Numbered from the stretch's first letter, positions 8,265-30,559 are shown. The stretch is DNA of 52,764 nucleotides from a virus (IMGVR_UViG_3300032288_004603:1-52764); one strand, 5' to 3'. Notes: generated by a model not told the origin, from the letters alone. Translations and numbers: made by a program.

Positions 8265-8390
8265 GTCTAATTAATAAGCAACTTACACGACAAAAAAGAT
8301 TAAGGGTGGCAAGCTTATGTTTTAAATTAGACACCAAGAGGGCAACACATAAATTCTACAAAAGACCACCCGTTGTGTTGCCCTTTTATT
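8265..8390 (+). ncRNA. putative anti-leader small RNA
   Basis: Promoter repeat followed by no ORF; contains gttttaaattagaca (reverse complement of leader tgtctaatttaaaac) and AGGGCAACAC/GTGTTGCCCT stem + T run. Confidence 0.5.
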
Positions 8391-8405
8391 TAAATCCAAA
8401 ATAAT

Positions 8406-8627
8406 ATGTATACTTTTAAAAATGTCGTATTACAGAGAGAGCACAAAGAGTTATTAGATAGTATGGTAGACCTAGATAAGGGAACGTTAGGAGGACACTC
8501 CATAGAAATAGTAACAGACGACCCGATATCATACGAAAGCTTTTTGTACCAAGGACGAACGGCAGAATCAGACAGAGACCATGATTTTAGAATTTTGGAA
8601 GAATTAATGAAAAAAACCACCGAATAA
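8406..8627 (+). CDS. hypothetical protein
   Basis: ATG ORF of 73 aa. Confidence 0.7.
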   Translation: MYTFKNVVLQREHKELLDSMVDLDKGTLGGHSIEIVTDDPISYESFLYQGRTAESDRDHDFRILEELMKKTTE

Positions 8628-8686
8628 TTTGGTGGTTTTATTTTTTTTTATTATCTTTGTATTGTCTAATAATTAAAACATAAAAT

Positions 8687-8971
8687 ATGGCTGGGCATTT
8701 ACCTTTAGTTACAACTGATTTTCATGTTAAATTGGTTGAGGAATTTAAAAACAATCGAGAGTTACAAACTGCTAAATTCTTTGATAGAATAAGAGTTGAA
8801 GGGTTTGAAGGATATTTTCAAAGATTACCCGAAGAATATAACATGGATGAAGAAACTGGATTAAAAGATAATCATATATTCTTTTATTGTGGAAATGAAA
8901 TGAATGATGAATATTTTGAAATTCATTTGGATGATAAACTAAAAATTAACCAAGTTTATTTGGTAATGTAA
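8687..8971 (+). CDS. hypothetical protein (cassette gene)
   Basis: ATG after repeat. Confidence 0.8.
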   Translation: MAGHLPLVTTDFHVKLVEEFKNNRELQTAKFFDRIRVEGFEGYFQRLPEEYNMDEETGLKDNHIFFYCGNEMNDEYFEIHLDDKLKINQVYLVM

Positions 8972-9020
8972 GATATTATTCTTATCTTTGTATTGTCTAA
9001 TTATTTAAAACAATATTATT

Positions 9021-9287
9021 ATGGCAAAAGCATTTAGACCACAAGTAATTGTTAATGTCCCTAGAGACTACAATGGTGAATTTGGGGATAGTGTATCAAA
9101 CGGACACATTCAAAGACAATTTGCTACGTATTCGGAAGTAAAGAAACGCATGAGAGATTTGTTAGAAGTTTCAAAGAACAATGAGGTTTCTGTATACAGG
9201 CACAGGAGAGGTGAATGGGGAGAATGGTTTGAGAAGTGGGCGATGATTAATGGTAAACCACAGATTTTCAAACAAGGTTGGCAATAA
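9021..9287 (+). CDS. hypothetical protein (cassette gene)
   Basis: ATG after repeat. Confidence 0.8.
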   Translation: MAKAFRPQVIVNVPRDYNGEFGDSVSNGHIQRQFATYSEVKKRMRDLLEVSKNNEVSVYRHRRGEWGEWFEKWAMINGKPQIFKQGWQ

Positions 9288-9304
9288 TATAAAACAATAT
9301 TATT

Positions 9305-9478
9305 ATGGAAGTAGTAGCATGTAAAAAAGAATTTAGTGAGGGTAAGCGATTTGGTTACACCATTAAGCATAACCAGCCAATTGGTTGGTTGGGAACAACA
9401 GGTGATTATATTGGTTGGTATCGTTACAAAACGCATGCAATCGAAAGAATGCAAGAATTGAAAAAAAGTTTGAAATAA
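9305..9478 (+). CDS. small hypothetical protein (57 aa, MEVVACKK...)
   Basis: Read manually; leader aaaacaatattattATG. Confidence 0.7.
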   Translation: MEVVACKKEFSEGKRFGYTIKHNQPIGWLGTTGDYIGWYRYKTHAIERMQELKKSLK

Positions 9479-9540
9479 ATTTGGATATATCAATTTATAT
9501 TCTTATCTTTGTATTGTCTAATAATTAAAACTTATAAATT

Positions 9541-10395
9541 ATGCCAAATCACATTACAAACCGATTAACAATTATCGGAACAGAAGAACAAGTAAAACAA
9601 GTTCGTGAAGCAATTAAAGGGGAACGTGAAGACCAATTTATTGACTTCAATAAGATTGCACCCATACCAAAAGAATTGGAGGGTACACAAAGTCCATTAC
9701 GAATTATTTCCCAAGAGGAATATGATGAGCAAGAACGAAGAATTCGTGAGAATGATTTAACCGATAATGAGAAAAATTGGGGATTGTCAAGGGGTTTAAC
9801 AAGGGAACTTGCTGATGAATATATCGAGAAATTCGGACACGCTGAATGGTATGGTTGGCAAACTTCAAATTGGGGTACAAAGTGGAATGCTTATGACCAA
9901 ACTGAACTTGATGAAAATTGCATTGAATTTCAAACTGCGTGGGCAACACCATTTGAGGTATTGGTTAATTTGAGTAGAATGTTTCCCGAAGTAACTTTTG
10001 AAGTGAAATATGCTGATGAGGATTTTGGTTACAATGTTGGGGAGTACACATTAGAGGGTGGTGATGAAATAGACACCAATATACCTGACGGGGGAAGTGT
10101 TGAGGCATTGGAAATGGCTATGGAGATTCAATATGGTACACCCGATGAGTATTTTGATTGCAACCAAGAAATTTTTGGTGAATACATTGATGATGATGAG
10201 GAAGAATTGAGTGATTATGAATTGACAATGATTGATATTGCTTACAAGCATGGAGTACACCCCGAAGAGGATTGTGGCTACCACAGACTTGTATTGGCAA
10301 GATTTAAAGAACTTGCATTGGAAGATGAGAACTTTGAACTTGTTATTGTAATTGACAAGGAATTGAGCAAGGTTGAAAGTGAGGGAGAAGAATAA
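9541..10395 (+). CDS. Api92/YubB-like (DUF1281) ferredoxin-fold protein
   Basis: MPNH..N.L.I.G start, WYGWQTSNWGTKWNA and FQTAWATP motifs. Confidence 0.75.
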   Translation: MPNHITNRLTIIGTEEQVKQVREAIKGEREDQFIDFNKIAPIPKELEGTQSPLRIISQEEYDEQERRIRENDLTDNEKNWGLSRGLTRELADEYIEKFGHAEWYGWQTSNWGTKWNAYDQTELDENCIEFQTAWATPFEVLVNLSRMFPEVTFEVKYADEDFGYNVGEYTLEGGDEIDTNIPDGGSVEALEMAMEIQYGTPDEYFDCNQEIFGEYIDDDEEELSDYELTMIDIAYKHGVHPEEDCGYHRLVLARFKELALEDENFELVIVIDKELSKVESEGEE

Positions 10396-10484
10396 AAAAT
10401 AATATAAAAAAAGTGACACTATAATTTGGTAGTGTTATTTTTTTTTCTTACCTTTGTATTGTCTAATAATTAAAACATAAAAAA

Positions 10485-10952
10485 ATGGGAACACGTAGTT
10501 TAACAAGAGTAATCGAAACTTATCGAGATGAGAAAAAAGACAAGCAAGTAAAAGTAACGCTTGTAAATATGTATCGTCAATATGACGGATACCCCGAAGG
10601 ACATGGTACTGAATTAGCAGACTTCCTAAAAGCTGGAAAAGTTGTTAATGGAATTGGTGGTGACGATACAAATGTATTCAATGGTGCGGGTTGTTTAGCA
10701 GCACAAATGATTGCACATTTCAAAGATGGTGCTGGTGGTATTTACATTGAACCAATCACCGCAAAGAATTGCGGACAGGAATATGAGTATGAAGTTATCG
10801 TTGATTTTGATACAAAAGAGGTTACAATGAAGTGTATTGAGGTTGGTTACATTGATAGCAAAGGTAACTATAAAAACGGAAAAATAGTAATATTTGAAGG
10901 AAAACCTGTTGATTTTGAGCAATTTGTTGAAAAATTATCAGAAAAAGCATAA
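10485..10952 (+). CDS. conserved phage protein
   Basis: MGTRS and YRQYDGYPEGHG motifs of a widespread uncharacterised family. Confidence 0.8.
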   Translation: MGTRSLTRVIETYRDEKKDKQVKVTLVNMYRQYDGYPEGHGTELADFLKAGKVVNGIGGDDTNVFNGAGCLAAQMIAHFKDGAGGIYIEPITAKNCGQEYEYEVIVDFDTKEVTMKCIEVGYIDSKGNYKNGKIVIFEGKPVDFEQFVEKLSEKA

Positions 10953-11030
10953 AATAATTGGAAAAAGATTTGGAGAATAGAAATATTCTCCTTATCTTTG
11001 TATTGTCTAATTATTTAAAACTATATTATT

Positions 11031-11309
11031 ATGAAGTCAAAAAGCATTTACGTTTTACAAACAGGTGGTTTAAGCAACATTGATAACCTATTTCATTTCT
11101 ATGATATTGAGGTATTCAGTTCAAAGAAAAAGATTGAAGCTGAAATACAGAACAGGATTTTGATTAATGGTGGAACTCATGTTGTTAGGGATGAGGGATA
11201 TTGTGGTATTGGAACAAAGAGCAATGTATTGATTACTTACAATTGTTTTAGCACTGACGGAAAACCGATGAGAGTTAGGTATCAACTATTGGAAAAAAAG
11301 TTGAATTAA
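11031..11309 (+). CDS. hypothetical protein (cassette gene)
   Basis: ATG after repeat. Confidence 0.8.
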   Translation: MKSKSIYVLQTGGLSNIDNLFHFYDIEVFSSKKKIEAEIQNRILINGGTHVVRDEGYCGIGTKSNVLITYNCFSTDGKPMRVRYQLLEKKLN

Positions 11310-11452
11310 CCTTTGCAACCGCAACCAGGGTTATCATCTTTTTTTATTTCGTTTATAGTTCTTTCTTTGGTGCGTTCTTTTGAGTCTTCATCGTATTTCT
11401 TTTTGATGGTATCAAAAGCTTTCATAAATTTTTTTCTATTACCTTTTTCCAT
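11306..11452 (-). CDS. small basic protein ending in GCGCKG
   Basis: ATG (MEKGNRK) preceded by minus-strand ATATTTAT at 11457-11464. Confidence 0.65.
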   Translation of the reverse strand: MEKGNRKKFMKAFDTIKKKYDEDSKERTKERTINEIKKDDNPGCGCKG

Positions 11453-11533
11453 ATTAATAAATATTATAAAAAAATTTGGAAAAGTCAATTTTATTCCTTA
11501 TCTTTGTATTGTCTAATTATTAAAACATAAAAT

Positions 11534-11878
11534 ATGATACACGATTTATCAACACAGAAAGGTCGCAATGCTTATGTAAAAGCAATGTCAAAATCAAATG
11601 ACAAAGTTGAGAAATACAAAGTCAACATTGAAGTTAGAGATAGTTGGGGTGATATTATAAGAGACGATAATGGAAACAAAGTTACTCACATATCTTACGA
11701 TGTTGAAATGCTTACAAGCAATATGGAGTTTAACTTGCGACACCTTGCAAACTCTTTAAAAGCATTTATGCCTGACAGACGAATAAACATTGAGGTTTAT
11801 GTCCACAATAGTATTTCGGGAACGTATATGAATATGTTTTCATTCTATGTTGATGAGGACAGATTTGTTAAACATTAA
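11534..11878 (+). CDS. hypothetical protein (cassette gene)
   Basis: ATG after repeat. Confidence 0.8.
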   Translation: MIHDLSTQKGRNAYVKAMSKSNDKVEKYKVNIEVRDSWGDIIRDDNGNKVTHISYDVEMLTSNMEFNLRHLANSLKAFMPDRRINIEVYVHNSISGTYMNMFSFYVDEDRFVKH

Positions 11879-11936
11879 TTTGGATAATTAAAATATTATT
11901 CTTATCTTTGTATTGTCTAATTAAAACATTTCAATT

Positions 11937-12134
11937 ATGAATTATAGCCAGTATTTATTTTCTTGTTTAATAAAACTATTTGATGAGGAGTTTGAGCAAA
12001 TGCCTTATGATAGTCAATTTGATGAAGCTATGTATGAATATTCTATATTTGAGGATAGCAAGTTCAATGACGGAAACAAAGGTGAATATGAATGTATTGT
12101 TGAATACTTAAAAGATAAGTATGGAAAAAGATAA
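11937..12134 (+). CDS. hypothetical protein (cassette gene)
   Basis: ATG after repeat. Confidence 0.75.
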   Translation: MNYSQYLFSCLIKLFDEEFEQMPYDSQFDEAMYEYSIFEDSKFNDGNKGEYECIVEYLKDKYGKR

Positions 12135-12318
12135 AGCATTATTCGTTGCATTCTATTTTTGGGGTGGCTACCACAAACAAAGTTTATTACAAGAGTTCGA
12201 TACCATTTATGAGTTGGCTGATAAGTTTGTTCAAACATATAGTCCATATTATACATGGGAAGATGTTAGCTTTGAGGAGTACATGGATAAGTTCATTAGA
12301 GAACATATACCGCAGTAG
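12121..12318 (+). CDS. hypothetical protein
   Basis: Overlaps upstream stop, suggesting translational coupling. Confidence 0.7.
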   Translation: MEKDKALFVAFYFWGGYHKQSLLQEFDTIYELADKFVQTYSPYYTWEDVSFEEYMDKFIREHIPQ

Positions 12319-12321
12319 TAT

Positions 12322-12339
12322 GTACACAAATGTGTATAT
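12322..12339 (+). repeat. oriented palindrome GTACAC-N4-GTGTATAT, copy 4
   Basis: gtacacaaatgtgtatat. Confidence 0.8.
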
Positions 12340-12387
12340 GCGTGCGTGATAGAGCAAATAAATTGTCAAATATAAAACTATATTATT

Positions 12388-12630
12388 ATGAGCAGAATAA
12401 TTGTTGAATACAATCCACCATTGTCGATGACAGCACAAAAAATAATACGAGATGAAGTATCACCCAGTATGATTAGTAATGATGATATGAGTTCTCAATA
12501 TGATATATCAATGGTTTCAGAATGTCTATATGATATATTCTACCAAGGATTGGAAGAGGTTGAATTTAAAGCTGATTTAGAACTAATAACTAATCTAATT
12601 GATGAAGGTGTTCATTATATAGAGTTCTAG
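12388..12630 (+). CDS. hypothetical protein
   Basis: ATG after leader-like attgtcaaatataaaactatattatt. Confidence 0.75.
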   Translation: MSRIIVEYNPPLSMTAQKIIRDEVSPSMISNDDMSSQYDISMVSECLYDIFYQGLEEVEFKADLELITNLIDEGVHYIEF

Positions 12631-12705
12631 CAAAGGTACAAATAATATTTTAAATAAAAAAGCATATTTCATTTGGATTTATGCTTTTTTCTTTTTATCT
12701 TTGTA

Positions 12706-12769
12706 CCATGGTTATGCATCCATGGGCTGATAGTCACCGACTAGCGGAAGAGTAGACTCCATGCTGCAC
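12706..12769 (+). ncRNA. dispersed structured sRNA, copy 2
   Basis: TATCTTTG promoter, CCAUGG hairpin, GGGCUGAUAGUCACCGACUAGCGGAAGAGUAGACUCC. Confidence 0.75.
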
Positions 12770-12947
12770 TAATATTTCATATAAAAATTTAACAAAAAAA
12801 ATTTGGATATGTCATTTTTATTTTGTATACGTGCGTGCGCTATTATAAAGGTATGAAAAAAAAATAAAAAAAATATCGTTTTATATTTGTTTATATAAAA
12901 TAATATTCTTACCTTTGTACTGTTAATCAATTAAAACAATTTAAATT

Positions 12948-13838
12948 ATGAACAACGAAATGAAAAACAAAGTGAATGAAATCTTGGTAGCACACAACTT
13001 AGATTTCCGTATTGAGAAAGAACAATTGCTTTCAGCAACAGGAAAGCCTACACCGTTTTACGGTTTGTTTAACGACAAAACAGGTGAGTGTATTAATTCT
13101 GTAAAAGAGGGTTACACAGTGTCTCAAAATGATGAGGTTGTTGAACTAGTATTAGAGGGAATGCAAGGCTTCGGAGAGTTGTCAGTATCAAAAGCTGGTG
13201 CATTGAATGGTGGACGTAAAGTGTTTATCCAATTGGGAATTGAGGGGATGTCACTAGTTGGTGATGAGCGTATTAAAAGATACGTGACTGTTATTGATAG
13301 CAATGACGGTAGTACAGGGTTGTCAGTTGGTATCGGGGAACTTGTTATGAGTTGCCAAAACCAATTCTTTAAGTTTTACAAAAGTGGGCAGTCAAAACTT
13401 CGCCATACAGCGAGTTTAACACAGCGTATTAAGGAAATACCTTTCCTTATTGAACAAGCGTTGTCACAGAGCCTTATTTTGACTGAAACGTATAAGCAAT
13501 TTCAGTCTACACCTGTTAGCAAAGCGTTGGCAGATGAAATGGTGAAACACATTTTAGGGTTTGACAGAACAATGTCTATTAAGACAGAAGCTGAATTGTC
13601 CACACGTTCCTTGAACGCAATGGAAACTTTGTATGACCACATTACAAAGGAAACCAATCAGAAAGGTATGAACCTATTTGGGTTATTCAGTGGGGTTACT
13701 TCTTGGACTACACACGAAAAGTCAGCACCACGCAGAGAGAATGGGCGTGAGGAAAGTATTATGACGGGAACTAACTACCGCACCAATGAGCAAGGGTTGG
13801 AATTTGCCCTTAACAAACTAGGGTTGGTAATGGCATAA
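12948..13838 (+). CDS. DUF932 (TIGR03299-like) phage/plasmid protein
   Basis: GALNGGRKVFI, DSNDGSTG, SCQN and RHT motifs. Confidence 0.8.
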   Translation: MNNEMKNKVNEILVAHNLDFRIEKEQLLSATGKPTPFYGLFNDKTGECINSVKEGYTVSQNDEVVELVLEGMQGFGELSVSKAGALNGGRKVFIQLGIEGMSLVGDERIKRYVTVIDSNDGSTGLSVGIGELVMSCQNQFFKFYKSGQSKLRHTASLTQRIKEIPFLIEQALSQSLILTETYKQFQSTPVSKALADEMVKHILGFDRTMSIKTEAELSTRSLNAMETLYDHITKETNQKGMNLFGLFSGVTSWTTHEKSAPRRENGREESIMTGTNYRTNEQGLEFALNKLGLVMA

Positions 13839-13847
13839 GGAATGGAA

Positions 13848-13867
13848 AGGGGGTTGAAAAACCCCCA
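13848..13867 (+). terminator. intrinsic terminator-like hairpin
   Basis: GGGGGTT-GAA-AACCCCC after the DUF932 stop. Confidence 0.6.
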
Positions 13868-13963
13868 CCATTTTGTTAATAACTTTTTGATTAAAAATTT
13901 GCAAGGGTCGATTATTTTTTGTACCTTTGCAAATTTTTTTTATATGGGTAAAAAAAAATATAA

Positions 13964-14019
13964 GGTAGGTTGGAGTCTACTCTACTACCACCTTGTGAGT
14001 GTCAGCCCGTCCATCGACA
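13964..14019 (-). ncRNA. dispersed structured sRNA, copy 3
   Basis: Minus-strand TACCTTTG promoter, GGGCUGACACUCACAAGGUGGUAGUAGAGUAGACUCCAACCUACC. Confidence 0.75.
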
Positions 14020-14160
14020 TAACAAAGGTAAGAATAATTTTTGACACCACCAAATTTTTTTAATATTATTTTATATTTTTTTTCAATGTAGACAATTGTC
14101 CGTTGTGGGAGTTAAATTATGTCCTTATCTTTGTGGTATAACTTTAAAAAACAAATAGAT

Positions 14161-14385
14161 ATGTTGCACGATTTAATTACAGAAGAAACAGAAGTATTTT
14201 ATACGAATGATGAACAATTATCGTATGAGTTTTATAGTAGTGATTATGACTACGTTGAATTATATATTGATGATTTTTATATTGGTGTGTGTGAAGTTTG
14301 GTTGGACGCTGAAATGGATTATAGACAATATATAATACTGAATTATGCAATAGTATATTTAGATACAATAAAATTAAAATGCTAA
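14161..14385 (+). CDS. acidic hypothetical protein
   Basis: ATG after variant promoter. Confidence 0.75.
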   Translation: MLHDLITEETEVFYTNDEQLSYEFYSSDYDYVELYIDDFYIGVCEVWLDAEMDYRQYIILNYAIVYLDTIKLKC

Positions 14386-14451
14386 CTTTAGTATGTTGTG
14401 GGGGTGAAATATAGTCTTTATCTTTGTAGTGTAACTTTAAAACATATTATT

Positions 14452-14724
14452 ATGAATTTAATTGAAAGAGTTGTTGAACAGATTAAGAGTGATTTGTTTA
14501 ATGGTTGGGAAGAAAGTATTGAAGAATTATTATCATTTGTACCAAGAGAGAACCTTATAGGTTTTTTGCCCGAAGAGGAATGGGAAAAGTATGAGAATGA
14601 GTATTGTTGCGACAATTGTGGTGGTGGGTTTATTGCGGAAGAAATGGACTTTGATGTTAACGACCAGGACTTATGCAAGAATTGTAACCATAAAACTTTT
14701 AATGAAGCACCTTATGGAGAATAA
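14452..14724 (+). CDS. hypothetical protein with CxxC pairs
   Basis: CDNC...CKNC; ATG after variant promoter. Confidence 0.75.
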   Translation: MNLIERVVEQIKSDLFNGWEESIEELLSFVPRENLIGFLPEEEWEKYENEYCCDNCGGGFIAEEMDFDVNDQDLCKNCNHKTFNEAPYGE

Positions 14725-14878
14725 TAAATGCAAATGTTATTGGTGCAACAATAAAGCGACCAAGATAGACTTTCGCACCATTGATAGAATAACAAGTAAA
14801 ATAGTGAGTTGTGATAGTTGCTTTGAATTGTCTACAAAAAAACTTTTAAATAAAATAGGAAAAGATTTGGATAAGTGA
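14714..14878 (+). CDS. small zinc-finger protein
   Basis: MENNKCKCYWC...CDSC; overlaps upstream stop. Confidence 0.65.
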   Translation: MENNKCKCYWCNNKATKIDFRTIDRITSKIVSCDSCFELSTKKLLNKIGKDLDK

Positions 14879-14921
14879 AAACTTATCCTTATCTTTGTAT
14901 TGTCTAATTAAAACAAACGTT

Positions 14922-15383
14922 ATGGAAAATTTAGTATTACAAGCATTAGGAAATTCAGAAGTTGAAAAAATCAACAAAATTAAAAGAAACAAGGAGTTCT
15001 TAAGACGACTTATCAATGATTTGCAACAAGTATATACTTTGTATGTATCTAATCGTGATGATATGGATAGTACAAAATATAGTATTAAAAGACAACCCAA
15101 TTACATGGATACAATGTTTTTTACTGCAAATGAAAATGATTGTGTATTCAGAACAAAAATTTTGGGTTATAGAAAGGGTGCAAGACCCGAATGGAACTTG
15201 GGTTGGATTATTGAAAAATACGATACTTGCAAAGGGGATGCTAGTTTTATGCGTGAAGAAGATGCACCACATGGACACGTTGAAGTAGAAATTAGGTTTA
15301 CTGATGTTAGTGCAAACTTAATGGATATTATCAAAGATATTACAAGAATCTTTGATAGAGAAAAAGTTTCAAAAAAATTCTAA
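14922..15383 (+). CDS. hypothetical protein (cassette gene)
   Basis: ATG after repeat. Confidence 0.8.
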   Translation: MENLVLQALGNSEVEKINKIKRNKEFLRRLINDLQQVYTLYVSNRDDMDSTKYSIKRQPNYMDTMFFTANENDCVFRTKILGYRKGARPEWNLGWIIEKYDTCKGDASFMREEDAPHGHVEVEIRFTDVSANLMDIIKDITRIFDREKVSKKF

Positions 15384-15456
15384 AATAATTGCATAAAGAT
15401 TTGGATAAGTGAAAACTTATCCTTATCTTTGTATTGTCTAATTAAAACAAGTTATT

Positions 15457-16116
15457 ATGGAAAAGTTTGAGCAACTAACAAAAGTGCAACAAGGATTGGT
15501 AAATGGACTAATCTCTGAATTTACAAAAATCAACCCAAAACCAACTAACGGAGTTAAACGTTTTGGTTTTGATACTATCAATGATTGTGTGGAAGAAGAA
15601 CAGCGTTTTAAACAAACGATTGCCAAACACAATAGAACAATGATGAAAGTTTTTGCTGACCAATTAAAAGCTGACATTAAAGAGTTCAAAAAAGAATTTG
15701 GTAAAGTGATTGATATTGAATTGGGGCATTCTTATAATGGTGGTAGTGAAAGACAACACACCTTAGAGAAATTAATTGAGCAATGTGAAAAACAACCAAT
15801 TAGTGACAACCGAAGTACCGAAATTAAATTGTTTTTTGTAAGCAAAGTAAAAAAGTATCAAAGTAGTGATAGTAGATATGACTACTTTGATAATAAACAA
15901 TATCAAGGTATTTTTGTTACTTTCAAACGTGAGAGAGTTGATGTAAAGTTGGAAAGTGGTAAAGGTGTTACTGCATTTAAAATTGTGGGATTGGTTTACA
16001 AAAATTACGATTGGTTGGGGGATGATAGAGATTTTTGTAAAAAGTTTTCAACATTAGATGAAATGGTGCAAAACCACAAACCTTTGCAACAACAAATAGT
16101 TGGGTTGGTACAATAA
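15457..16116 (+). CDS. hypothetical protein (cassette gene)
   Basis: 219 aa; ATG after repeat. Confidence 0.85.
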   Translation: MEKFEQLTKVQQGLVNGLISEFTKINPKPTNGVKRFGFDTINDCVEEEQRFKQTIAKHNRTMMKVFADQLKADIKEFKKEFGKVIDIELGHSYNGGSERQHTLEKLIEQCEKQPISDNRSTEIKLFFVSKVKKYQSSDSRYDYFDNKQYQGIFVTFKRERVDVKLESGKGVTAFKIVGLVYKNYDWLGDDRDFCKKFSTLDEMVQNHKPLQQQIVGLVQ

Positions 16117-16189
16117 AAAAGTTAACAAAAGATTTGGAGAATTGAAAAATTCTCCTTATCTTTGTATTGTCTAATTAAAACTTATTATT

Positions 16190-22201: not shown

Positions 22202-22265
22202 ACGTGTGTGGGTTGTTGGCTTTTTACTATCTGTTAAGATATTTACTATTATATTATTTTAAATA

Positions 22266-22463: not shown

Positions 22464-22541
22464 TAATATTATTTTATATTTCCAAATGTTTTTTGATTAT
22501 TTTGTTTACAGTAGGTTGTTTACTGTAAATTAAACTTTATT

Positions 22542-22602
22542 GTAGGTTGGAGTCTACTCTTCTGTTCCTCTCGGCTCAGCCCATTGTCGTTTTATTGACA
22601 AT
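22542..22602 (-). ncRNA. dispersed structured sRNA, copy 4
   Basis: Minus-strand TATCTTTG, AUUGUC/GACAAU hairpin, GGGCUGAGCCGAGAGGAACAGAAGAGUAGACUCCAACCUAC. Confidence 0.75.
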
Positions 22603-22732
22603 ACAAAGATAAGGATAATAAATAATATATCCAAATTATTTAACAAAAAAAATAAATAAAAAAATATTGTTTTATATTTGGTAGTTTAAAAAATAATCCT
22701 TACCTTTGTAAGGTCAATTTAAAACAATAACA

Positions 22733-23278: not shown

Positions 23279-23344
23279 AAAAGATTTGGATAATTGAAAA
23301 ATTATCCTTATCTTTGTATTGTATAATTATTAAAACATAAACAA

Positions 23345-23557
23345 ATGGAAAAGATACCAACAGCAGAAGAGTTTATTGAAACGCACAATAGATTGAATGA
23401 TTCCTCAACAGAATTATTAATGATTGAATTTGCTAAACTTCACGTAAAAGCTACGTGTGAAGCTATTGCTAACGAGTATTATCCAAAGGATAAGGAAAAC
23501 TTTGAGATAGTTGCTGCAAGATTTATCAATGCTTATCCACTAAAAAACATTAAATAA
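23345..23557 (+). CDS. conserved small phage protein
   Basis: IPTAEE...MIEFAKLHV...NAYPLKNIK pattern. Confidence 0.8.
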   Translation: MEKIPTAEEFIETHNRLNDSSTELLMIEFAKLHVKATCEAIANEYYPKDKENFEIVAARFINAYPLKNIK

Positions 23558-23615
23558 ATTTGGAATTGTCAAAATAAATTCTTATCTTTGTATTGTCAAT
23601 TTAAAACAAGTAATT

Positions 23616-23813
23616 ATGAATGCAAAGGTAGAACAAATTTTAAGAAAGTCAGCTTACGATTTCGCAATCATGTGTGGTGCATCTGAAGCTGAAGCATTAG
23701 TCGAAGCAGACAATAAGATTAAGAGTGTAAATAAGGTCACTGAACAAGAGAAAAAACAAAAGTGGGTAGATATTACCACTGGAAAAAAACACACACCTAA
23801 AACCCCTTATTAA
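23616..23813 (+). CDS. hypothetical protein (cassette gene)
   Basis: ATG after repeat; terminator AAACCCC/GGGGTTT at its end. Confidence 0.75.
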   Translation: MNAKVEQILRKSAYDFAIMCGASEAEALVEADNKIKSVNKVTEQEKKQKWVDITTGKKHTPKTPY

Positions 23814-23847
23814 GGGGTTTTTTATATTTGAATAAACTTAAGTATAA

Positions 23848-23906
23848 GGTAGGTCGGAGTCTACTCTCCTGTTCCTTTCGGCTCAGCCCTTATCGTTCAT
23901 TGACAT
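23848..23906 (-). ncRNA. dispersed structured sRNA, copy 5
   Basis: Minus-strand TACCTTTG, GGGCUGAGCCGAAAGGAACAGGAGAGUAGACUCCGACCUACC. Confidence 0.75.
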
Positions 23907-24038
23907 AACAAAGGTAAGTATAATTTTTTAATCTACCAAATTATTTCACAACTTTTTTTAAAAATTATTTTCATTAAAAATTTGGAAATATCAAATAATA
24001 TATTTATCTTTGTATTAACAATTTAAAACAACAAAACA

Positions 24039-24323
24039 ATGAGTGCAATTTATGTATCCCCGATTGGGTTAAGCGTTTTTGATGACAAAAAAGAATTTGG
24101 TTATTTTACCATTACAGGAAACGCAAAAAGAAGTGAAACGATTGTTGAATTTGATTCAGCATACGACTTTGAAGAATTTATTCAAGAAAAAGTTAATTGC
24201 AAGGATATTCAATTCGATAGCGAGTTTTGTCAATTCTTTGCTTATGCAAAAACAAGGGCAACTGCTATGAGGTTTGTTACTGCTATTGAAAAACATTTTG
24301 ACAAAGTGAAAAAAATGTTGTAA
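24039..24323 (+). CDS. hypothetical protein (cassette gene)
   Basis: ATG after repeat. Confidence 0.8.
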   Translation: MSAIYVSPIGLSVFDDKKEFGYFTITGNAKRSETIVEFDSAYDFEEFIQEKVNCKDIQFDSEFCQFFAYAKTRATAMRFVTAIEKHFDKVKKML

Positions 24324-24382
24324 AACATTTGGAAATATCAAATAATATATTTATCTTTGTATTGTTCAATTAAAAACACATT

Positions 24383-24646
24383 ATGAAAAAAGTAAAAAAT
24401 AAGCACACAGTTTTGAAAGGTGAGGGTGCAAATCAACACACAATTTATGGCAATTTCAAAGTTGAAAGTGAAACTGCTGATTTTTCAGTAATTTCAGTAA
24501 AGGAAGATGCCGAGCTACGACACGAAGAACCCAATGGGGAATTTGCCGAGCATAACACATTGAAAGTTGATAAGGGAGTTTGGATTATGGGCAAACAAGT
24601 TGAGTATAACCCATTCAAAAGAACGATTAGTCAAGTTTGGGATTAA
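24383..24646 (+). CDS. conserved His-containing protein, typical DUF6745 partner
   Basis: LKGEGANQH...LRHEE...EH.TL...G.W...QVEY.P...V.D pattern. Confidence 0.7.
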   Translation: MKKVKNKHTVLKGEGANQHTIYGNFKVESETADFSVISVKEDAELRHEEPNGEFAEHNTLKVDKGVWIMGKQVEYNPFKRTISQVWD

Positions 24647-24720
24647 CTTTTTTTGAAAAAAATTTGGTTATATCATTTTTTATTCTTATCTTTGTAAGGT
24701 CAATTTAAAACAACAAAACA

Positions 24721-25125
24721 ATGGCTAATCCTTTAATTCATTCAAAATCCAGCGTTAAGCGTTGGGGTGGTAAAGTAGAAGATTATATTGCAATCCACGA
24801 ACTTATTGATAGTCCAAAGGCTACAATGAACAATAATTCATCAAGAGCATTAACCCACAATACTTGGTTTGCTTATACGATTATACCTAAAATTTTTGGT
24901 TACAATATAGTAAATTCAGACGGAAGAAGTGTTGATACCGTTGATATTGCTATGTTGCATATTGCCGAAGATTTCCGTATGAAATTCGTTCCGACACCAC
25001 AAGACTATTTAAAGCACATGGTTGTTCAACCTTGGTTTAACAATGGAGTGAAAGATATTGAGAACCCCGAAGCAACAAAGGTTGCAGAAGAATTTTTAGA
25101 AAAACTAAGAACTGAAAATAATTGA
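24721..25125 (+). CDS. DUF6915-like protein
   Basis: HSKSSVKRWGGKVEDYIAIH, RALTH and HIAED...PT..D.L motifs. Confidence 0.7.
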   Translation: MANPLIHSKSSVKRWGGKVEDYIAIHELIDSPKATMNNNSSRALTHNTWFAYTIIPKIFGYNIVNSDGRSVDTVDIAMLHIAEDFRMKFVPTPQDYLKHMVVQPWFNNGVKDIENPEATKVAEEFLEKLRTENN

Positions 25126-25189
25126 TAAATAATTTGGTCAATTAAAAAATTATACTTATATTTGTATTGTTAATTTAAAAAAAAAGAAA

Positions 25190-25831
25190 ATGATAACACA
25201 AGAAGAAGCAATTAAACTTTGGAAAGAACTTGGGGTTGAAAGTTGCACAATGGATTTTTATTGTGGTGGGGATAGTATGGGCGATACCTCATTTGTTTTG
25301 CTTGGTAGTGAGGGAATGATTGATTGTGATGAATTGTTAGACTTTTTTGAAGATGAAGTTTACAAGCACGTTGATTTTTATGTAAATTCAGACGGACACT
25401 ATCAAGGGGAAAGTGGGAATGTTGAAATTGTCTTGGAAGATTATGACGGTGAAGAAGAATTTAGTTACTCAAAGTCAGCAACAAGTGAGTGGAGTGAAAC
25501 TATTGACAATACATTGGAAGTTAAACTAACAGACGAAATGGTTAGTTTTATTGTGAACAATGTTTTAAACATTCGTGGTGGTTATGACGATAAACCTATT
25601 GTGAATTTCAAACAAGATTTCATAATGTCAGATGAAGAAGAAAAAATACTAAATGATATTAGTAACTTAATTGATAAAACTTGCGAAGATTTTGTGCCTG
25701 AAACTGATGATGAATTGGAAGAATGGTATAACTACACCACAAACGAAAGAGGGGAAGAAATTATCATTAAGGATAACAAGCTACAAATACAAATTTCAAA
25801 TAGTGTAATAGTTTTTACTGAAAGTGATTAA
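25190..25831 (+). CDS. DUF6878-like acidic protein
   Basis: F.CGGDS.G motif; adjacent to DUF6915-like gene. Confidence 0.55.
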   Translation: MITQEEAIKLWKELGVESCTMDFYCGGDSMGDTSFVLLGSEGMIDCDELLDFFEDEVYKHVDFYVNSDGHYQGESGNVEIVLEDYDGEEEFSYSKSATSEWSETIDNTLEVKLTDEMVSFIVNNVLNIRGGYDDKPIVNFKQDFIMSDEEEKILNDISNLIDKTCEDFVPETDDELEEWYNYTTNERGEEIIIKDNKLQIQISNSVIVFTESD

Positions 25832-25905
25832 AACTTTTGTATAAATTATTTGGAAATGTTATTTTATATTCTTATCTTTGTATTGTCTAATTAAAACAAC
25901 AAAAA

Positions 25906-26580
25906 ATGAAAGTAGTTATTGAGAATGTTATTTTTGATAAAGAAGTTGGTAGCAGACTTTTGAAGTTGAAACACGAAACTTGCCCTTATCCACAATTAGA
26001 GAATGAATGGGATAGTATTGTTCCTTTGTCATTCAAAGATATTGCCAAAATGAAAAACTTGGAAGAAAGGCGAATTGGTATTGTTTGTCTTGGGTTGGAT
26101 AGACTTATTAAGGAAGTAAACCCAAAACTTATTTCAAGTAAAACATTGAAGAAAAAAGCTAACTATATTGATAAAGACGGAAACCACATTAAAAAAACTT
26201 ACGAAGATACTTACGAACTTTACGAAGTGAGTGGGGAACAATTTAGTGAGGGGTTGGATAGTTGGCGAACTGCAAGTAATTCACACTATGTAAAATGTAA
26301 GGACACCTCAACGGATAGAGAATATCTTATTTGGGTTGATATTAGAGAAGTAAGTAGAACAAATGGGGGTAGTGGTTGGAGTGTTGAGGCAAAAGACGTA
26401 AACCCTATTCAATGTATTGCTTGGACTATTCAAACAAATGTTAAAGAGGGTAACATTGAAAAGATTATTCGACAAGGGGATTGTGTTTTGGTTAAACCGA
26501 TTAACCCTAATGATTTGTTGGATAACCCACGACACCTAACCGAAAAAGAATATAAAAAATTGCTTGTTGCAGAAAGTTAA
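25906..26580 (+). CDS. DUF6745-like protein with C-terminal RQGD motif
   Basis: NLEERR, YVKCKDTSTDREYLIWV, IAWT and IIRQGD motifs. Confidence 0.65.
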   Translation: MKVVIENVIFDKEVGSRLLKLKHETCPYPQLENEWDSIVPLSFKDIAKMKNLEERRIGIVCLGLDRLIKEVNPKLISSKTLKKKANYIDKDGNHIKKTYEDTYELYEVSGEQFSEGLDSWRTASNSHYVKCKDTSTDREYLIWVDIREVSRTNGGSGWSVEAKDVNPIQCIAWTIQTNVKEGNIEKIIRQGDCVLVKPINPNDLLDNPRHLTEKEYKKLLVAES

Positions 26581-26679
26581 ATTGTTGTTGTTTTAAGTTG
26601 ATGAAAAAAAGTGGCACTATTATTTGGTAGTGTCATTTTTTTTTCTTATCTTTGTATTAACAATTTAAAACAATAAACA

Positions 26680-26920
26680 ATGAGAAAAATTTCAACATTC
26701 GTATTTCTTTTTATCATTTCATTAATAGGTTTTGGGAATGAGTAATTGGAATCCAAATAGTGCAAAGCACAAGGCACAACATTGTGGTTACAAGGGTAAA
26801 CCAACAAAACAAAGTGTAAACGCTTTATTGAGCCTTTATTCAGCTTGTGTGGTAGTTAAGGAAACACCAAACCCAGTTTCAAAAAAAGAAATTGGCAAAC
26901 AATTAAAATTTGATTTTTAA
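26680..26920 (+). pseudogene. frameshifted secreted/membrane protein gene
   Basis: Signal-like 21 aa ORF (26680-26745) and downstream ORF in +1 frame; removing one T in ggttttggga fuses them. Confidence 0.5.
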
Positions 26921-26997
26921 CAAAAAAATATCGTTTTTTATTTGGTAGTTTCAAAAATAATCCTTATCTTTGTATTGTCTAATTAAAACAACAACTT

Positions 26998-27318
26998 ATG
27001 TCAGCAACAAATTTCCCAAAAGATGAAGTTACTTTCTTCGCAACAGATTTAACTATTAATGAAATGGTTAAACATTACACTTTCCAAGAACTTATGGCTA
27101 TGTTCCTATTCGGAAAGAATACAATTGAAAAGTTAGATTATATTGTTAAAAATAATCTTTTTGATGAATGCGAAGTACACCCTTTGGAAGTCCTTAAAGA
27201 TAAACTATACTTTCAGACAAAAACATTCATTGTGCAATTAGCACTTGAAAAAATGAATACTTGTGAAATAGTATTAATTGAATCAATGTGTAATGTAGCA
27301 ACATTATTTAAAAACTAA
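26998..27318 (+). CDS. hypothetical protein (cassette gene)
   Basis: ATG after repeat. Confidence 0.8.
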   Translation: MSATNFPKDEVTFFATDLTINEMVKHYTFQELMAMFLFGKNTIEKLDYIVKNNLFDECEVHPLEVLKDKLYFQTKTFIVQLALEKMNTCEIVLIESMCNVATLFKN

Positions 27319-27323
27319 TTAAG

Positions 27324-27470
27324 ATGAACGAGGAAGTTTCAGCACTATATTTAGATGAACAAGGTTGTTTATCTATTGACTACGGAACAACACCAATGTT
27401 TGTTGAGGGATTTGGGGAATGTGTATTCGGAGATTATATTGTTTACACCCAGAAAAAAAATCAAAAATAA
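27324..27470 (+). CDS. small hypothetical protein (48 aa)
   Basis: Read manually; fills gap before next promoter. Confidence 0.6.
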   Translation: MNEEVSALYLDEQGCLSIDYGTTPMFVEGFGECVFGDYIVYTQKKNQK

Positions 27471-27527
27471 TTAGGAAATATCGTTTTATATTATTATCTT
27501 TGTAGTGTCACTTTAAAACAATAAGAA

Positions 27528-27815
27528 ATGAAAGCAGAAATTAAAATTACAAGCAGTTACGGATTTGACCGCAATTGGACGTTGGTTGTATCAACGGCAA
27601 AAAAAACAAAGTCTTTCTATTTAGGACAAGACGTTAAGTTTTGCAGTAGAGTATTGGGTATGGAGCCTTCATACATTGTTCAACAAATTGGAACGTCAAC
27701 AATTGGGGAAGGAACAAGAGGTAACAAAAGACTTGCTAAATTCATTTGTAACGAACTTGGATTGAACGGAAGAAACATTGATAAGATTGAGCCTTGGGGG
27801 TTGTGTTGCCAATAG
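27528..27815 (+). CDS. hypothetical protein (cassette gene)
   Basis: ATG after repeat; FYLGQDVKFCSRVLG motif. Confidence 0.8.
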   Translation: MKAEIKITSSYGFDRNWTLVVSTAKKTKSFYLGQDVKFCSRVLGMEPSYIVQQIGTSTIGEGTRGNKRLAKFICNELGLNGRNIDKIEPWGLCCQ

Positions 27816-27826
27816 CACACAGCCTT

Positions 27827-27844
27827 GTACACAATTGTGTATAT
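27827..27844 (+). repeat. oriented palindrome GTACAC-N4-GTGTATAT, copy 6
   Basis: gtacacaattgtgtatat. Confidence 0.8.
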
Positions 27845-27856
27845 GCGCATACAAGA

Positions 27857-27878
27857 AAGGGGACAATTTAGTCCCCTT
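27857..27878. terminator. hairpin between convergent genes
   Basis: AAGGGGAC-AATTTA-GTCCCCTT. Confidence 0.65.
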
Positions 27879-27901
27879 AATTATTTAATCTTATTTTATT
27901 T

Positions 27902-28111
27902 TTAATTACTTAAACATTCGGATTGTTGGAAGTGTAATCTTGCAACTTGTAAGAAAACATAGTCAGGAAGTTTCATCATCGAATCTTTAATCTCATCGTC
28001 AAACCAAAATGATAATTCACCAGTTTTTTCGTTGTATAGGTTATTTAAACCTTTAGCCATTAGGTTGCCCTCATTAAGTTGAACATCACCCACTTTTCTT
28101 AATACATTCAT
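27902..28111 (-). CDS. hypothetical protein (inverted cassette)
   Basis: Full promoter-leader repeat on minus strand at about 28120-28170. Confidence 0.8.
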   Translation of the reverse strand: MNVLRKVGDVQLNEGNLMAKGLNNLYNEKTGELSFWFDDEIKDSMMKLPDYVFLQVARLHFQQSECLSN

Positions 28112-28221
28112 ATTGTTTTGTTTTAAATAGACAATACAAAGATAATAATATAAAATGATATAACCAAATTTTTTATCGTTTATTTTAACGATATTTTTAA
28201 TTATCGTCTAATTTAACGATA

Positions 28222-28280
28222 GTGCGTGTTGGAGTCTACTCTCTCGTTCCTCTCGGCTCGACCCTTACCTTATTGGTACA
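28222..28280 (-). ncRNA. dispersed structured sRNA, copy 6
   Basis: GGGUCGAGCCGAGAGGAACGAGAGAGUAGACUCCAAC; compensatory UCG/CGA stem. Confidence 0.75.
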
Positions 28281-28413
28281 CTACAAAGATAAGAATAATA
28301 ATTGACACCACCAAATTATTTGACAAAAAAAATAAATAAAAAATTATCCTATTTTATTTGGAGAATTGAAAAAGATTCCTTATCTTTGTATTGTCAATTT
28401 AAAACAACGAATT

Positions 28414-28686
28414 ATGAAAATGGAACAATTCTTAAAAGAAATCAAAGGAACTCAATTTGAAGCTGACTTTGCAAAGTCAGCTGAGTTGAATGTTAATGGT
28501 GCGCCAACTAGCAAAGCATATTGGAACTTAATCCTTTCAATCAGAGATTGCAAGTTATATTCAAAAGGTATCAAACCACACAGATTTTGGAAAATAAGCG
28601 ATGTTAAAGCGTATTTTGGTGTTAAAGGTAATGCACAAGGTATTGCAGAAAAATTAGAGCAATACAAAGCAGTTTTGGTGGCTTAA
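28414..28686 (+). CDS. hypothetical protein (cassette gene)
   Basis: ATG after repeat. Confidence 0.8.
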   Translation: MKMEQFLKEIKGTQFEADFAKSAELNVNGAPTSKAYWNLILSIRDCKLYSKGIKPHRFWKISDVKAYFGVKGNAQGIAEKLEQYKAVLVA

Positions 28687-28748
28687 AAAAAATCAAAAAT
28701 AATTGCAAAAAGATTTGGAGAATTGAAAAATTCTCCTTATCTTTGTTA

Positions 28749-28801
28749 TAACAAAAAGGGGCTGACACGAGAGTGGTAGTAGAGTAGACTCCGACCTACC
28801 C
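28749..28801 (+). ncRNA. dispersed structured sRNA, copy 7
   Basis: TATCTTTG promoter, GGGCUGACACGAGAGUGGUAGUAGAGUAGACUCCGACCUACC. Confidence 0.75.
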
Positions 28802-28903
28802 TAAAAAAACATATTATAAATTAATTTAAAAAATTATCCTATTTTATTTGGATAATTGAAAAAGATTCCTTACCTTTGTAGAGTCAATTTAAAACAATAA
28901 GAT

Positions 28904-29119
28904 ATGTCAGTAAATGCTAGTTTAGAAATCGCTAATGAGTTAATGAACAACAAAACAGTATTAACCAAAGAAGAGCGTGATGTGTGCGTACAATTTATGC
29001 CTGAAATGGCTAAAGAATACTTATTTCATAATTCTTGGAATAACACTTGGTTAAACCTTAATGTGTATTCTGAGATTGAAAAAGAAGAATCCGATTTACG
29101 TAAAGAAATAGGTTTTTAA
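28904..29119 (+). CDS. hypothetical protein (cassette gene)
   Basis: ATG after repeat. Confidence 0.75.
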   Translation: MSVNASLEIANELMNNKTVLTKEERDVCVQFMPEMAKEYLFHNSWNNTWLNLNVYSEIEKEESDLRKEIGF

Positions 29120-29154
29120 TAAACCTATTTTTATATACCAAAAAAAAATATAAA

Positions 29155-29212
29155 GTGGGTCGGAGTCTACTCTTCTGTTCCTCTCGGCTCAGCCCCTTGT
29201 CATCCATTGACT
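29155..29212 (-). ncRNA. dispersed structured sRNA, copy 8
   Basis: GGGCUGAGCCGAGAGGAACAGAAGAGUAGACUCCGACCCAC after minus-strand promoter. Confidence 0.75.
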
Positions 29213-29344
29213 ATACAAAGATAAGAATAATAATTGAAACTACCAAATTTTTTAACAAAAAAATAAATAAAAAAATTATCCTATTTTATTTGGATAATTG
29301 AAAAAGATTCCTTACCTTTGTAGTGTCAATTTAAACAACAAACA

Positions 29345-29815
29345 ATGAAAAATTTATTATTTCGCTTATTCATCTTAATTTCAATAGGGTTAATTATCTT
29401 TTTTGCTATTTCAACTAAAACAAATAAGGTATCAAAAGAAATTGTAAATATAACAAATGAAGTTGATACAACAACTGAAACTTTTGAAGAAACTGAAACC
29501 AATGATGAAATAGTTGAAACGAAGAAAGAAAAAGAATTTAATAATTTTTTAGTTAAAGGTCAAATCAATACTTATTCAAATGGTGTTGATACCTATGTTG
29601 TTGAATTAGATACTTTGGATAGAATTGTAATTACACAACCAAATAATTTAACTAATGGTCATTTTTGGGATAAAAATAATTGCGTATTTAAAAATGATTA
29701 CATTTATGTTGATTGGGTAACTTATGTTGATTGGGTAACTACTGAATACTATATTAAAAATACTGAATTAATCATTGTTAAAAATGGTAAATCCACAAAA
29801 TATAAATTAATTTAA
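29345..29815 (+). CDS. membrane-anchored protein
   Basis: N-terminal hydrophobic helix; internal 18-nt tandem duplication (YVDWVT x2, 29705-29740). Confidence 0.8.
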   Translation: MKNLLFRLFILISIGLIIFFAISTKTNKVSKEIVNITNEVDTTTETFEETETNDEIVETKKEKEFNNFLVKGQINTYSNGVDTYVVELDTLDRIVITQPNNLTNGHFWDKNNCVFKNDYIYVDWVTYVDWVTTEYYIKNTELIIVKNGKSTKYKLI

Positions 29816-29892
29816 AAAAATATAGTTTTATATTTGGTTATATCAAAAATAATCCTTATCTTTGTATTGTCTAATTATTAAAACATAAAACA

Positions 29893-30006
29893 ATGGTAGT
29901 ATTCTTAACACTTTTGGCACTGGCTTTTTATTGGGTGCATAAACACGAAGAAAAAGAGGATGATAATTTAAGCGATGAAGCTTGGAATGAAAAATATAAC
30001 CGATAA
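29893..30006 (+). CDS. small membrane peptide (37 aa)
   Basis: Read manually; ATG after repeat. Confidence 0.65.
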   Translation: MVVFLTLLALAFYWVHKHEEKEDDNLSDEAWNEKYNR

Positions 30007-30074
30007 AATTTGGTTATATCAAAAATAATCCTTAACTTTGTATTCACTAATCACTTAAAACTAAAATTAAAAAA

Positions 30075-30461
30075 ATGGAAAATCTAAAAAAATCAAAATT
30101 ACTTAATGGTGTGTTATTCATCTTTTCGTTTCTTGTTTGCACACTAATAACATTCCCAATTGCACAAGAATTGGACGGCACTTTATCATTCATTATTTTA
30201 TTAATTATTGTCACAATTGGAATTATTGTTCTAACAAAAACACTTGAACAAAAATTGGATGAACACGTATTTTCAGAAATTGAAAGGCATAAATATAAAC
30301 ATATTAGTCAGTTCTTTGATACTATGGAAGATGATAAAGAATTTAGTAAGAATGTATTAAGAGAAACGATACCGATATATAACGATGATAGGGAGAAAAT
30401 CGGGGAACAAACTGTTTATAGTGCAATATCACAAAAGAAACAAAGATTTTTAAGATTATAG
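30075..30461 (+). CDS. two-TM membrane protein
   Basis: Two hydrophobic segments; ATG after repeat. Confidence 0.8.
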   Translation: MENLKKSKLLNGVLFIFSFLVCTLITFPIAQELDGTLSFIILLIIVTIGIIVLTKTLEQKLDEHVFSEIERHKYKHISQFFDTMEDDKEFSKNVLRETIPIYNDDREKIGEQTVYSAISQKKQRFLRL

Positions 30462-30559
30462 TTGTTGTTTTAAGTTGATGAAAAAAAGTGAGGTAATTAT
30501 TTGGTTATCTCATTTTTTTTATTTATCTTTGTATTGTCTAATTATTAAAACTTAAAATT

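Follow-up and report, generated by a model that had tools for sequence, protein, structure and literature searches.

The c4 antisense RNA of phages P1 and P7 comes from the same transcription unit as its targets and pairs with the translation start region of downstream genes. Sequences that might work in a comparable way occur in IMGVR_UViG_3300032288_004603, a 52,764-base record that was analysed in full (the window) and is a fragment of a large phage. Its early genes form an array of cassettes with shared leaders ahead of their start codons, and reverse complements of these leaders (anti-leaders) lie on the sense strand at sites A to E. The target of c4 is a single operon; in the phage studied here, many cassettes have the complementary leader in common. 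Searches with Rfam returned only three tRNAs at or above the gathering score in the window and no other family, that of c4 (RF01695) included; at E values up to 0.5 nothing overlapped sites A, B or C, and the neighbouring units free of open reading frames (ORFs) were also without a match. We tentatively favour the reading that some of the anti-leaders have been exapted as 3′-end RNA modules that may pair with cassette leaders, in a class-specific rather than a global manner.

By analogy, the closest described parallel for the origin of the anti-leaders would be the PeSL cassettes of T4-like phages. These combine a repeated stem-loop, an early promoter and a translation start between small accessory genes, with conserved modules beside swapped gene content and with degraded copies (PMC4122927). 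The array is alike in that its composite promoter-leader sequence recurs 42 times on the plus strand and its modules coincide with gene replacements among relatives. It differs in using Bacteroidota -33/-7 promoters without a Shine-Dalgarno sequence, in place of sigma-70-like -35/-10 boxes with one. The items under study are, moreover, inverted, promoter-dead copies before terminators, and the word ‘inverted’ does not occur in the covered text of PMC4122927.

The position of site B recalls 3′ETS(leuZ) of Escherichia coli, the external spacer behind an operon's last tRNA, which is a tRNA-Leu. This spacer ends in the operon terminator, is released by RNase E and is a base-pairing regulator that sponges the small RNAs (sRNAs) RyhB and RybB (10.1101/2021.04.25.441314). 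Site B likewise lies between the last tRNA and a terminator, and it holds the same position behind other tRNAs in relatives. However, its predicted partners are the 5′ leaders of the phage's own mRNAs, and the two elements have no sequence relation. T4 RegA and RegB are proteins that act post-transcriptionally on the translation initiation regions of many early mRNAs (PMC3014915), whereas the candidate effector here is an RNA and no RegA or RegB homologue was identified. The literature, covered in part, gave no account of inverted leader copies before terminators or of phage tRNA-trailer elements.

Leaders and anti-leaders of the early array

Each of the ~45 cassettes is built from a -33 box ATTTGG, a spacer, a -7 box TAtCTTTG, TATT, the leader, 6-10 nucleotides (nt) and ATG, with hairpins often in, or before, the -33/-7 spacer. 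The boxes are of Bacteroidota type, and there is no Shine-Dalgarno sequence. At up to three mismatches, the composite TANNTTTGTATTGTCTAAT matches 45 times (1.69 expected), and 42 of these matches are on the plus strand. The G of TAnnTTTG occupies position -5 in Flavobacterium johnsoniae (PMC6847099), and by this rule the mRNA start was placed at the G of GTC in GTCTAATT; TATTGT upstream of this inferred +1 is invariant in most promoters. Class-1 leaders, GTCTAATT(ATT)AAAAC, run across the whole array, and class-2 leaders, GTCAATTTAAAAC, comprise eight exact copies and one variant, all at 22.7-31.9 kb. The classes are separated in space, every class-2 leader lying downstream of site C (22713-31904 against 3782-21450), a pattern that may reflect two classes of early cassettes, temporal or regulatory.

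An earlier note on this DNA had listed five anti-leaders (here A, B, C, D1 and D2), the first three directly before terminator hairpins, and had described them as lacking the TA of an inverted -7 box. These observations are borne out. The coordinates and letters hold (Table 1), a hairpin and T-run lie directly downstream of every site, and the minus strand of sites B and C reads CTTCTTTG instead of TAnnTTTG, with no -33 box upstream on that strand. None of 12 aligned copies of site B has TA at -7 (they read CTTCTTTG, TCTCTTTG, GTTCTTTG or CCCTTTTG), and a live antisense promoter was rejected on this ground. A weaker sixth copy, the site-E anti-leader at 6086-6097, was absent from that list.

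Duplex energies with eight representative leaders were computed for 5,800 windows of 30 nt on the plus strand between 3.4 and 32.4 kb (mean -4.67, s.d. 1.55 kcal/mol). The six best of these 5,800 are the five listed sites and one true inverted promoter, that of minus-strand gene 27902-28111. On the plus strand GTTTTAAATTGACA occurs exactly once, at 19289 in site B. The 14-nt block GACAAACAAAGAAG, common to sites B and C, is exact at 19299 and 22137 and has 5 matches at up to two mismatches against 1.06 expected. Within site B, 13 nt are the exact complement of GTCAATTTAAAAC in eight class-2 cassettes. Leader cores without a -7 box number 0/41 on the sense strand of the window (0/15, 0/17 and 0/21 in relatives G001, G003 and G004) and 2/3 on its antisense strand (1/1, 2/6 and 2/2, respectively). 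In G002, a further relative, 3/18 sense cores lack the box pattern, and two of these carry the TATCTTCG variant. Sites B and C have a common build of small hairpin, single-stranded anti-leader and intrinsic terminator; the terminator scan found hairpins at 19316-19339 and 22156-22173, and the hairpin of site A, 8339-8383, has a long loop.

Table 1. Features of the window, with fold z-scores of modules and, for anti-leaders and one promoter, the best-pairing windows of the 5,800-window scan
Feature	Position	Strand	Remarks
Early cassette array	3782-31910	+	~45 cassettes; promoter/leader pattern
Intact inverted cassettes	3710-3724, 22594-22611, 28116-28144, 28277-28291, 29213-29223	-	pattern search
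Site E	6086-6140	+	TTAATTAGACAA, A-run, terminator/-33 hairpin
HNH-type endonuclease gene	7902-8228	+	phrog_3118, phrog_3322, phrog_1035, E 1e-11 to 1e-22
-7 box (8253-8260) and class-1-like leader of site-A unit	8253-8275	+	specific to window; absent upstream of G002 copy
Site A, conserved structured element	8300-8392	+	AAGGGTGG at 8302-8309; anti-leader 8319-8333; hairpin; T-run; z -4.0
Site A anti-leader	8319-8333	+	gttttaaattagaca; scan 8306-8345, -14.8 kcal/mol
73-aa gene	8406-8627	+	no standard promoter; downstream of site A
tRNA-Leu(UAA)	19185-19270	+	last gene of tRNA/non-coding RNA block; CCA not encoded; ACA after acceptor stem
Site B trailer module	19269-19350	+	z -5.5; conserved in relatives
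Site B anti-leader	19279-19310	+	cataatggtagttttaaattgacaaacaaaga; directly after tRNA-Leu; scan 19266-19315, -17.8 kcal/mol
Site C module	22108-22181	+	small hairpin 22113-22117/22125-22129; unpaired anti-leader with GACAAACAAAGAAG; terminator hairpin 22149-22181; z -4.4
Site C anti-leader	22125-22148	+	gttgttttaatagacaaacaaaga; scan 22106-22155, -13.9 kcal/mol
Palindromic motif TGTACACAnnTGTGTATATnCGTG	22183-22206	+	directly after site C; conserved there in relatives
Nine class-2 cassettes	22713, 23595, 24699, 27507, 28393, 28883, 30942, 31193, 31892 (22713-31904)	+	eight with exact GTCAATTTAAAAC
Site D1	26584-26644	+	short copy gttgttgttttaagttgatg at 26584; TTGTTGTTTTAAGTTGATGAAAAAAAGTG after stop codon, running into terminator/-33 hairpin; scan 26571-26615, -12.3 kcal/mol
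Intact inverted promoter and leader	28116-28144	-	pattern search; drives gene 27902-28111; scan 28096-28145, -17.7 kcal/mol
Site D2	30461-30522	+	short copy gttgttgttttaagttgatg at 30461; 29-nt block of D1 after another gene's stop codon; scan 30446-30495, -15.5 kcal/mol

The trailer behind tRNA-Leu

In the predicted fold of site B a small hairpin (19271-19275/19289-19293) contains an inner stem (19278-19280/19284-19286) with the loop UAA; downstream follow the unpaired AAAUUGACA (19294-19302), an A-rich linker, and the terminator hairpin (19316-19339) with its T-run. Between the window and G003 the trailer is identical at 43/44 positions, whereas the flanks agree at 70/89 (tRNA-Leu), 31/42 (linker and terminator) and 32/42 (-33 to -7), and a nearby 211-codon gene at 494/640. 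By its sequence, site B is under strong constraint and not a dead relic. The trailer was found in 11 distinct contigs of the close group, and a diverged copy is present in G002, a complete 287,855-base contig with terminal repeats that is among the closest relatives. Across the first 38 positions of the 11 close copies, substitutions fall in two columns (G/A at 8, A/G at 20), both unpaired in the predicted hairpin, and one A-run changes in length; the metagenome scan behind these copies was anchored on the hairpin part and therefore cannot reveal loss of that part. Of 15 loci matched by a relaxed hairpin pattern, three were true (G001, G002 and G003), and a pattern for the tRNA-Leu anticodon arm led to the trailer in one (G003) among 80 of 110 loci.

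In contigs L158, L160/G001 and L167 the trailer stands behind other tRNAs, and the gene that follows the module of tRNA, trailer, terminator and promoter is unrelated among the window, G001, G003 and G004; the trailer is thus kept as a module. The G002 copy sits after the one tRNA inside the early array. A general tRNA-processing signal was considered and rejected, since the ends of the two large tRNA clusters of G002 lack the trailer; one of three minus-strand tRNA trailers examined carries it.

The diverged copy in G002 is informative in three respects. First, the small hairpin is compensated: its inner stem changes from CCA/UGG to AUACA/UGUAU and the UAA loop is unchanged. Second, the anti-leader has become the complement of CCGTTATCAATTAAAAC, which fits, with one base missing, the leader (C)GTTAATCAATTAAAAC of 11 G002 cassettes, just as the window's site B exactly fits the window's own GTCAATTTAAAAC. 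In this one diverged relative, site B tracks the leader class of its own genome, as an RNA pairing partner would. Third, the complement of the -7 box is gone, so that conservation stops close to the inferred +1. In both genomes the next cassette behind the module bears a class-1 leader; the class-2 anti-leader is thus matched to leaders elsewhere, which favours action in trans over action in cis. Pairing of the trailer with the 5′ end of its own precursor was likewise rejected, as different leaders follow the promoters upstream of the tRNA, both in the window and in G002.

Pairing between 3′-end RNA and leaders is ranked first because the constraint on site B falls on a stretch known only for its leader complementarity, the hairpin is compensated, the divergence follows leader class and the match is to distant leaders. 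The sequences, with their conservation, predicted folds and complementarity and the co-variation in G002, are what the analysis shows; we infer the existence of discrete RNAs, their pairing in trans and the sign of its effect. Some inverted modules would have been retained at the 3′ end of certain transcription units, and RNA from such ends would pair with the 5′-terminal leader of cassette mRNAs. The clearest case would be the ~80-nt trailer of site B, set free when tRNA-Leu is cut from its precursor. CCA-less tRNAs are processed by an endonucleolytic cut at the 3′ end, and because CCA is not encoded in this tRNA-Leu such a cut is to be expected. A leader duplex from +1 to AUG would then lower translation of the target mRNAs or change their decay, as expected for Bacteroidota-type mRNAs that lack a Shine-Dalgarno sequence and depend on an unstructured, A-rich leader. 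In F. johnsoniae, structure in the translation initiation region does tune initiation (PMC6847099). The 8-9 class-2 cassettes at 22.7-31.9 kb would be the targets of site B; class-1 leaders would be those of sites A and C.

If the trailer does pair with leaders, an entire class of phage early genes would be under the control of one small RNA, in a bacterial phylum without Shine-Dalgarno initiation whose sRNA biology is poorly known, and the shuffling and inversion of promoter cassettes could turn some of them into regulators of their own kin. The ~80-nt RNA and its exact 13-nt target in eight cassettes make a clear test object. Bolder, and held with low confidence, is the proposal of a family of antisense RNAs from tRNA trailers and 3′ untranslated regions in large Bacteroidota-type phages, co-evolving with class-shared leaders and timing or stopping their translation; it would be an RNA counterpart of T4 RegA/RegB in translation without Shine-Dalgarno pairing.

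Other anti-leader sites and rival explanations

Site A lies in a unit that the earlier note had described as having a promoter and terminator but no ORF. This description fits the 8253-8390 unit, whose sole ATG opens a 2-codon frame. The conserved part begins only at ~8300, however, and the copy in G002 stands behind a gene and lacks a promoter; 8265-8390 is not an autonomous sRNA gene. That copy is syntenic, directly behind a gene and before a homologous small gene. It retains the anti-leader and the loop, and the rest is ~69% identical. The hairpin (8339-8348/8374-8383) has a 25-nt loop with the conserved AATTCTACAAAA; between the window and G002 the stem letters differ and the loop AATTCTACAAAA..CCA is kept. 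In the window the anti-leader is predicted to be bound in cis by the unit's own 5′ leader, and in G002 it reads GAUAGAC and has its partner, GUCUAUC, further downstream, ahead of the small gene. The 73-aa gene behind site A has a 69-aa homologue at this place in G002 (motifs GGHSIE and HDF..L.E.L, same neighbourhood), and neither has its own promoter. Site A may thus be as much a 5′ regulatory leader of the small gene as an sRNA; a pairing of AAGGGUGG with the loop CCACCC is a possible candidate. Pattern scans of viral contigs for site-A homologues gave one true locus among 8 and one among 4, both in G002. Contig L046 was set aside, as it has AAGGGTGG and AATTCTACAAAA in common with site A and is otherwise unlike it.

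The HNH-type endonuclease gene upstream lies between two cassettes, is not at the syntenic place in G002 and was probably inserted together with the site-A promoter. Among the matches listed, contigs of two DNA runs (X4 and X5) join 8158 to 8304 and so lack that promoter, although joints at promoter repeats in contigs of the four DNA runs searched may be assembly effects. Also among the matches listed, contigs of the four runs show changes at 8312, 8336 and 8343 (C>T, giving a G-U pair in the stem) and single-base gaps at 8360, 8389 and 19315, none of them inside 8319-8333.

Site C has homologues in G001, G004 and G003. The units on either side of it converge, those on the minus strand having promoters at 22611 and ~22470. 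The earlier note had made conservation across relatives a test of its proposal; it holds for site B against G003, for site A in G002 and for site C in three relatives, but site C decays in G003. The palindromic motif behind site C, TGTACACAnnTGTGTATATnCGTG, recurs at 2164-2187 on the minus strand and at 3276-3299, 12321-12344 and 27826-27849 on the plus strand (5 copies in all against 0 expected), behind gene ends and ahead of genes without a standard promoter; it is possibly a second promoter class or an operator. D1, D2 and a third copy in G003 have a common 29-nt block behind unrelated stop codons. At sites D and E the terminator is flanked by the anti-leader and the next leader.

Several points weigh against RNA pairing as the function of the anti-leaders. 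Their match extends into the -7 box, which is not transcribed in the mRNAs, so that this part can only come from DNA copying; by its sequence, it is the mark of inverted DNA copies of promoters rather than of antisense RNA by design. In the close group CAAAG, the complement of that box, is as conserved as the rest of site B, a fact that mRNA pairing leaves unexplained. The co-variation comes from a single diverged relative, G002, against which the trailer (34/45) is no more conserved than its surroundings. Leaders are homogenised within a genome (11 identical copies in G002), and gene conversion acting on an inverted copy could mimic such co-variation. In site B the small hairpin is predicted to take up the 5′ half of the anti-leader (GUUUU), the site-A anti-leader is predicted to be occupied in cis in the window, and site C in G003 lacks the GAC that would face the mRNA 5′ end. 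One trailer RNA would also face many abundant mRNAs. Finally, 32-40 of 50 cassette leaders give predicted duplexes at or below -12 kcal/mol, whereas 100 shuffles of each anti-leader average 0.2-2.0 such leaders, but these energies are a consequence of complementarity, not independent evidence, and add little.

The DNA-level origin is itself evident from the sequence: the anti-leaders are inverted promoter-leader-ATG modules that have lost the TA of the -7 box. Reversed, site B runs CTTTG-TTT-GTCAATTTAAAAC-TACCATT-ATGG, in which TTTG of the -7 box is followed by the four-base spacer, then by a class-2 leader and the start codon; G003 has a forward promoter of this TTT variant. The modules might therefore be recombination scars, dead products of cassette inversion and shuffling with no present function, site B being kept for an unrelated reason. 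Homology that spans the -7 TTTG, leader and ATG bespeaks a copy made at the DNA level, and the intact inverted cassettes at five places indicate that cassette inversion occurs here. The genes flanking conserved modules vary among relatives, site C decays in G003, and T4-like phages carry degraded half-PeSLs near indels (PMC4122927). Against a lack of function stand the near-identity of the site-B trailer amid flanks of 74-79% identity, the compensatory hairpin change and leader-matched divergence in G002, and the anti-leader and loop of site A kept there above the level of the remainder. We regard scars as an unlikely account, though the strongest of the rivals.

Insulation in cis is rather more doubtful. 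By a c4-like logic, the anti-leader in a read-through RNA would pair with the next leader, hiding its start or inviting a cut by a double-strand RNase, and each cassette would be translated only from its own promoter's transcript. Read-through folds do pair the anti-leader with the next leader at 4/5 junctions (D1, D2, E and B, but not position 13197 of G004), inverted repeats I2, I3 and I15 flank terminators, and the GAUAGAC of site A in G002 has its partner before the small gene. However, no cassette leader lies downstream of site C, the class-2 anti-leader of site B adjoins a class-1 leader in both the window and G002, and the trailer of contig L159 is intact though the adjacent promoter lacks such a leader.

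The earlier note had gone further than class-specific pairing and proposed that anti-leader RNAs jointly shut off translation of the whole early array. This version, which overlaps the RNA-pairing reading that we favour, seems improbable. Many leaders (32-40 of 50) are energetically within reach, and each leader class is covered by at least one module. Exact matches are limited by class, however: site B exactly matches only the class-2 GTCAATTTAAAAC of eight cassettes, and class 1 is matched by sites A and C. In the window site A is predicted to be self-paired, and the modules use the same early-type promoters as their targets, which leaves no obvious timing switch. What survives of the proposal of RNAs acting in trans is that the elements are non-random, lie before terminators and include a constrained site B that follows the leader class of G002; the global scope and the stand-alone site A do not.

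Least probable of all is a role at the DNA level, as a protein site on promoter-proximal DNA (TATTGTCTAATT / GTCAATTT) or a T-rich tail for minus-strand termination: the invariance of TATTGT in most promoters suggests recognition beyond sigma, site B conserves the CAAAG of the -7 box within the close group, site C lies between convergent units and a double-stranded site functions in either orientation, but the part upstream of +1 is lost in G002, no minus-strand promoter faces site B, and box-less copies are almost only antisense, which a symmetric DNA site would not need.

Neighbouring units and phage context

The window encodes a nicotinamide phosphoribosyltransferase, a ribose-phosphate pyrophosphokinase and a Lon-like protease. 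GenBank phages gave no near match to it, and a distant search matched tRNA-Leu alone. Three ORF-free, promoter-driven units, at 22480-22611 (minus strand), 28150-28291 (minus strand) and 860-1010 of contig L034 (plus strand), have a common core GAGCCGAGAGGAAC..GAGAGTAGACTCCA; the unit that starts at 22611 converges on site C. They are candidates for a second small-RNA family of the phage group. At 22440-22490 on the minus strand, an extra -33/-7 pair lies over the stop codon of a 65-aa gene (22266-22463), to which its RNA would be antisense.

The tRNA block holds further non-coding sequence. At 18497-19185 on the plus strand, downstream of two standard promoters (-7 boxes at 18517 and 18723), come ~170 and ~450 nt of sequence that is ORF-free, richer in G+C and continuous with tRNA-Leu. 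G003 conserves the longer stretch, which contains repeats of gacgagatacagcctctg; no Rfam family matches. These stretches are candidates for one or more large phage non-coding RNAs. A truncated 5′ tRNA half, ggacttctagctcattcggttagag, at 17497-17525, is full length in G004 and lies just upstream of tRNA-Met (17531-17605). In G001 (~8150-8253 of contig L035) and L160, the tRNA before the site-B trailer has ~40-50 extra bases near the anticodon region, either an intron-like insert or the sign of a broken gene. Finally, (AC)GTTCTTTGA/A at 17614, 18534 and 18750 stands behind tRNAs or opens ORF-free units; it also follows tRNA-Leu in many unrelated viral contigs and is possibly a common Bacteroidota spacer or processing signal.

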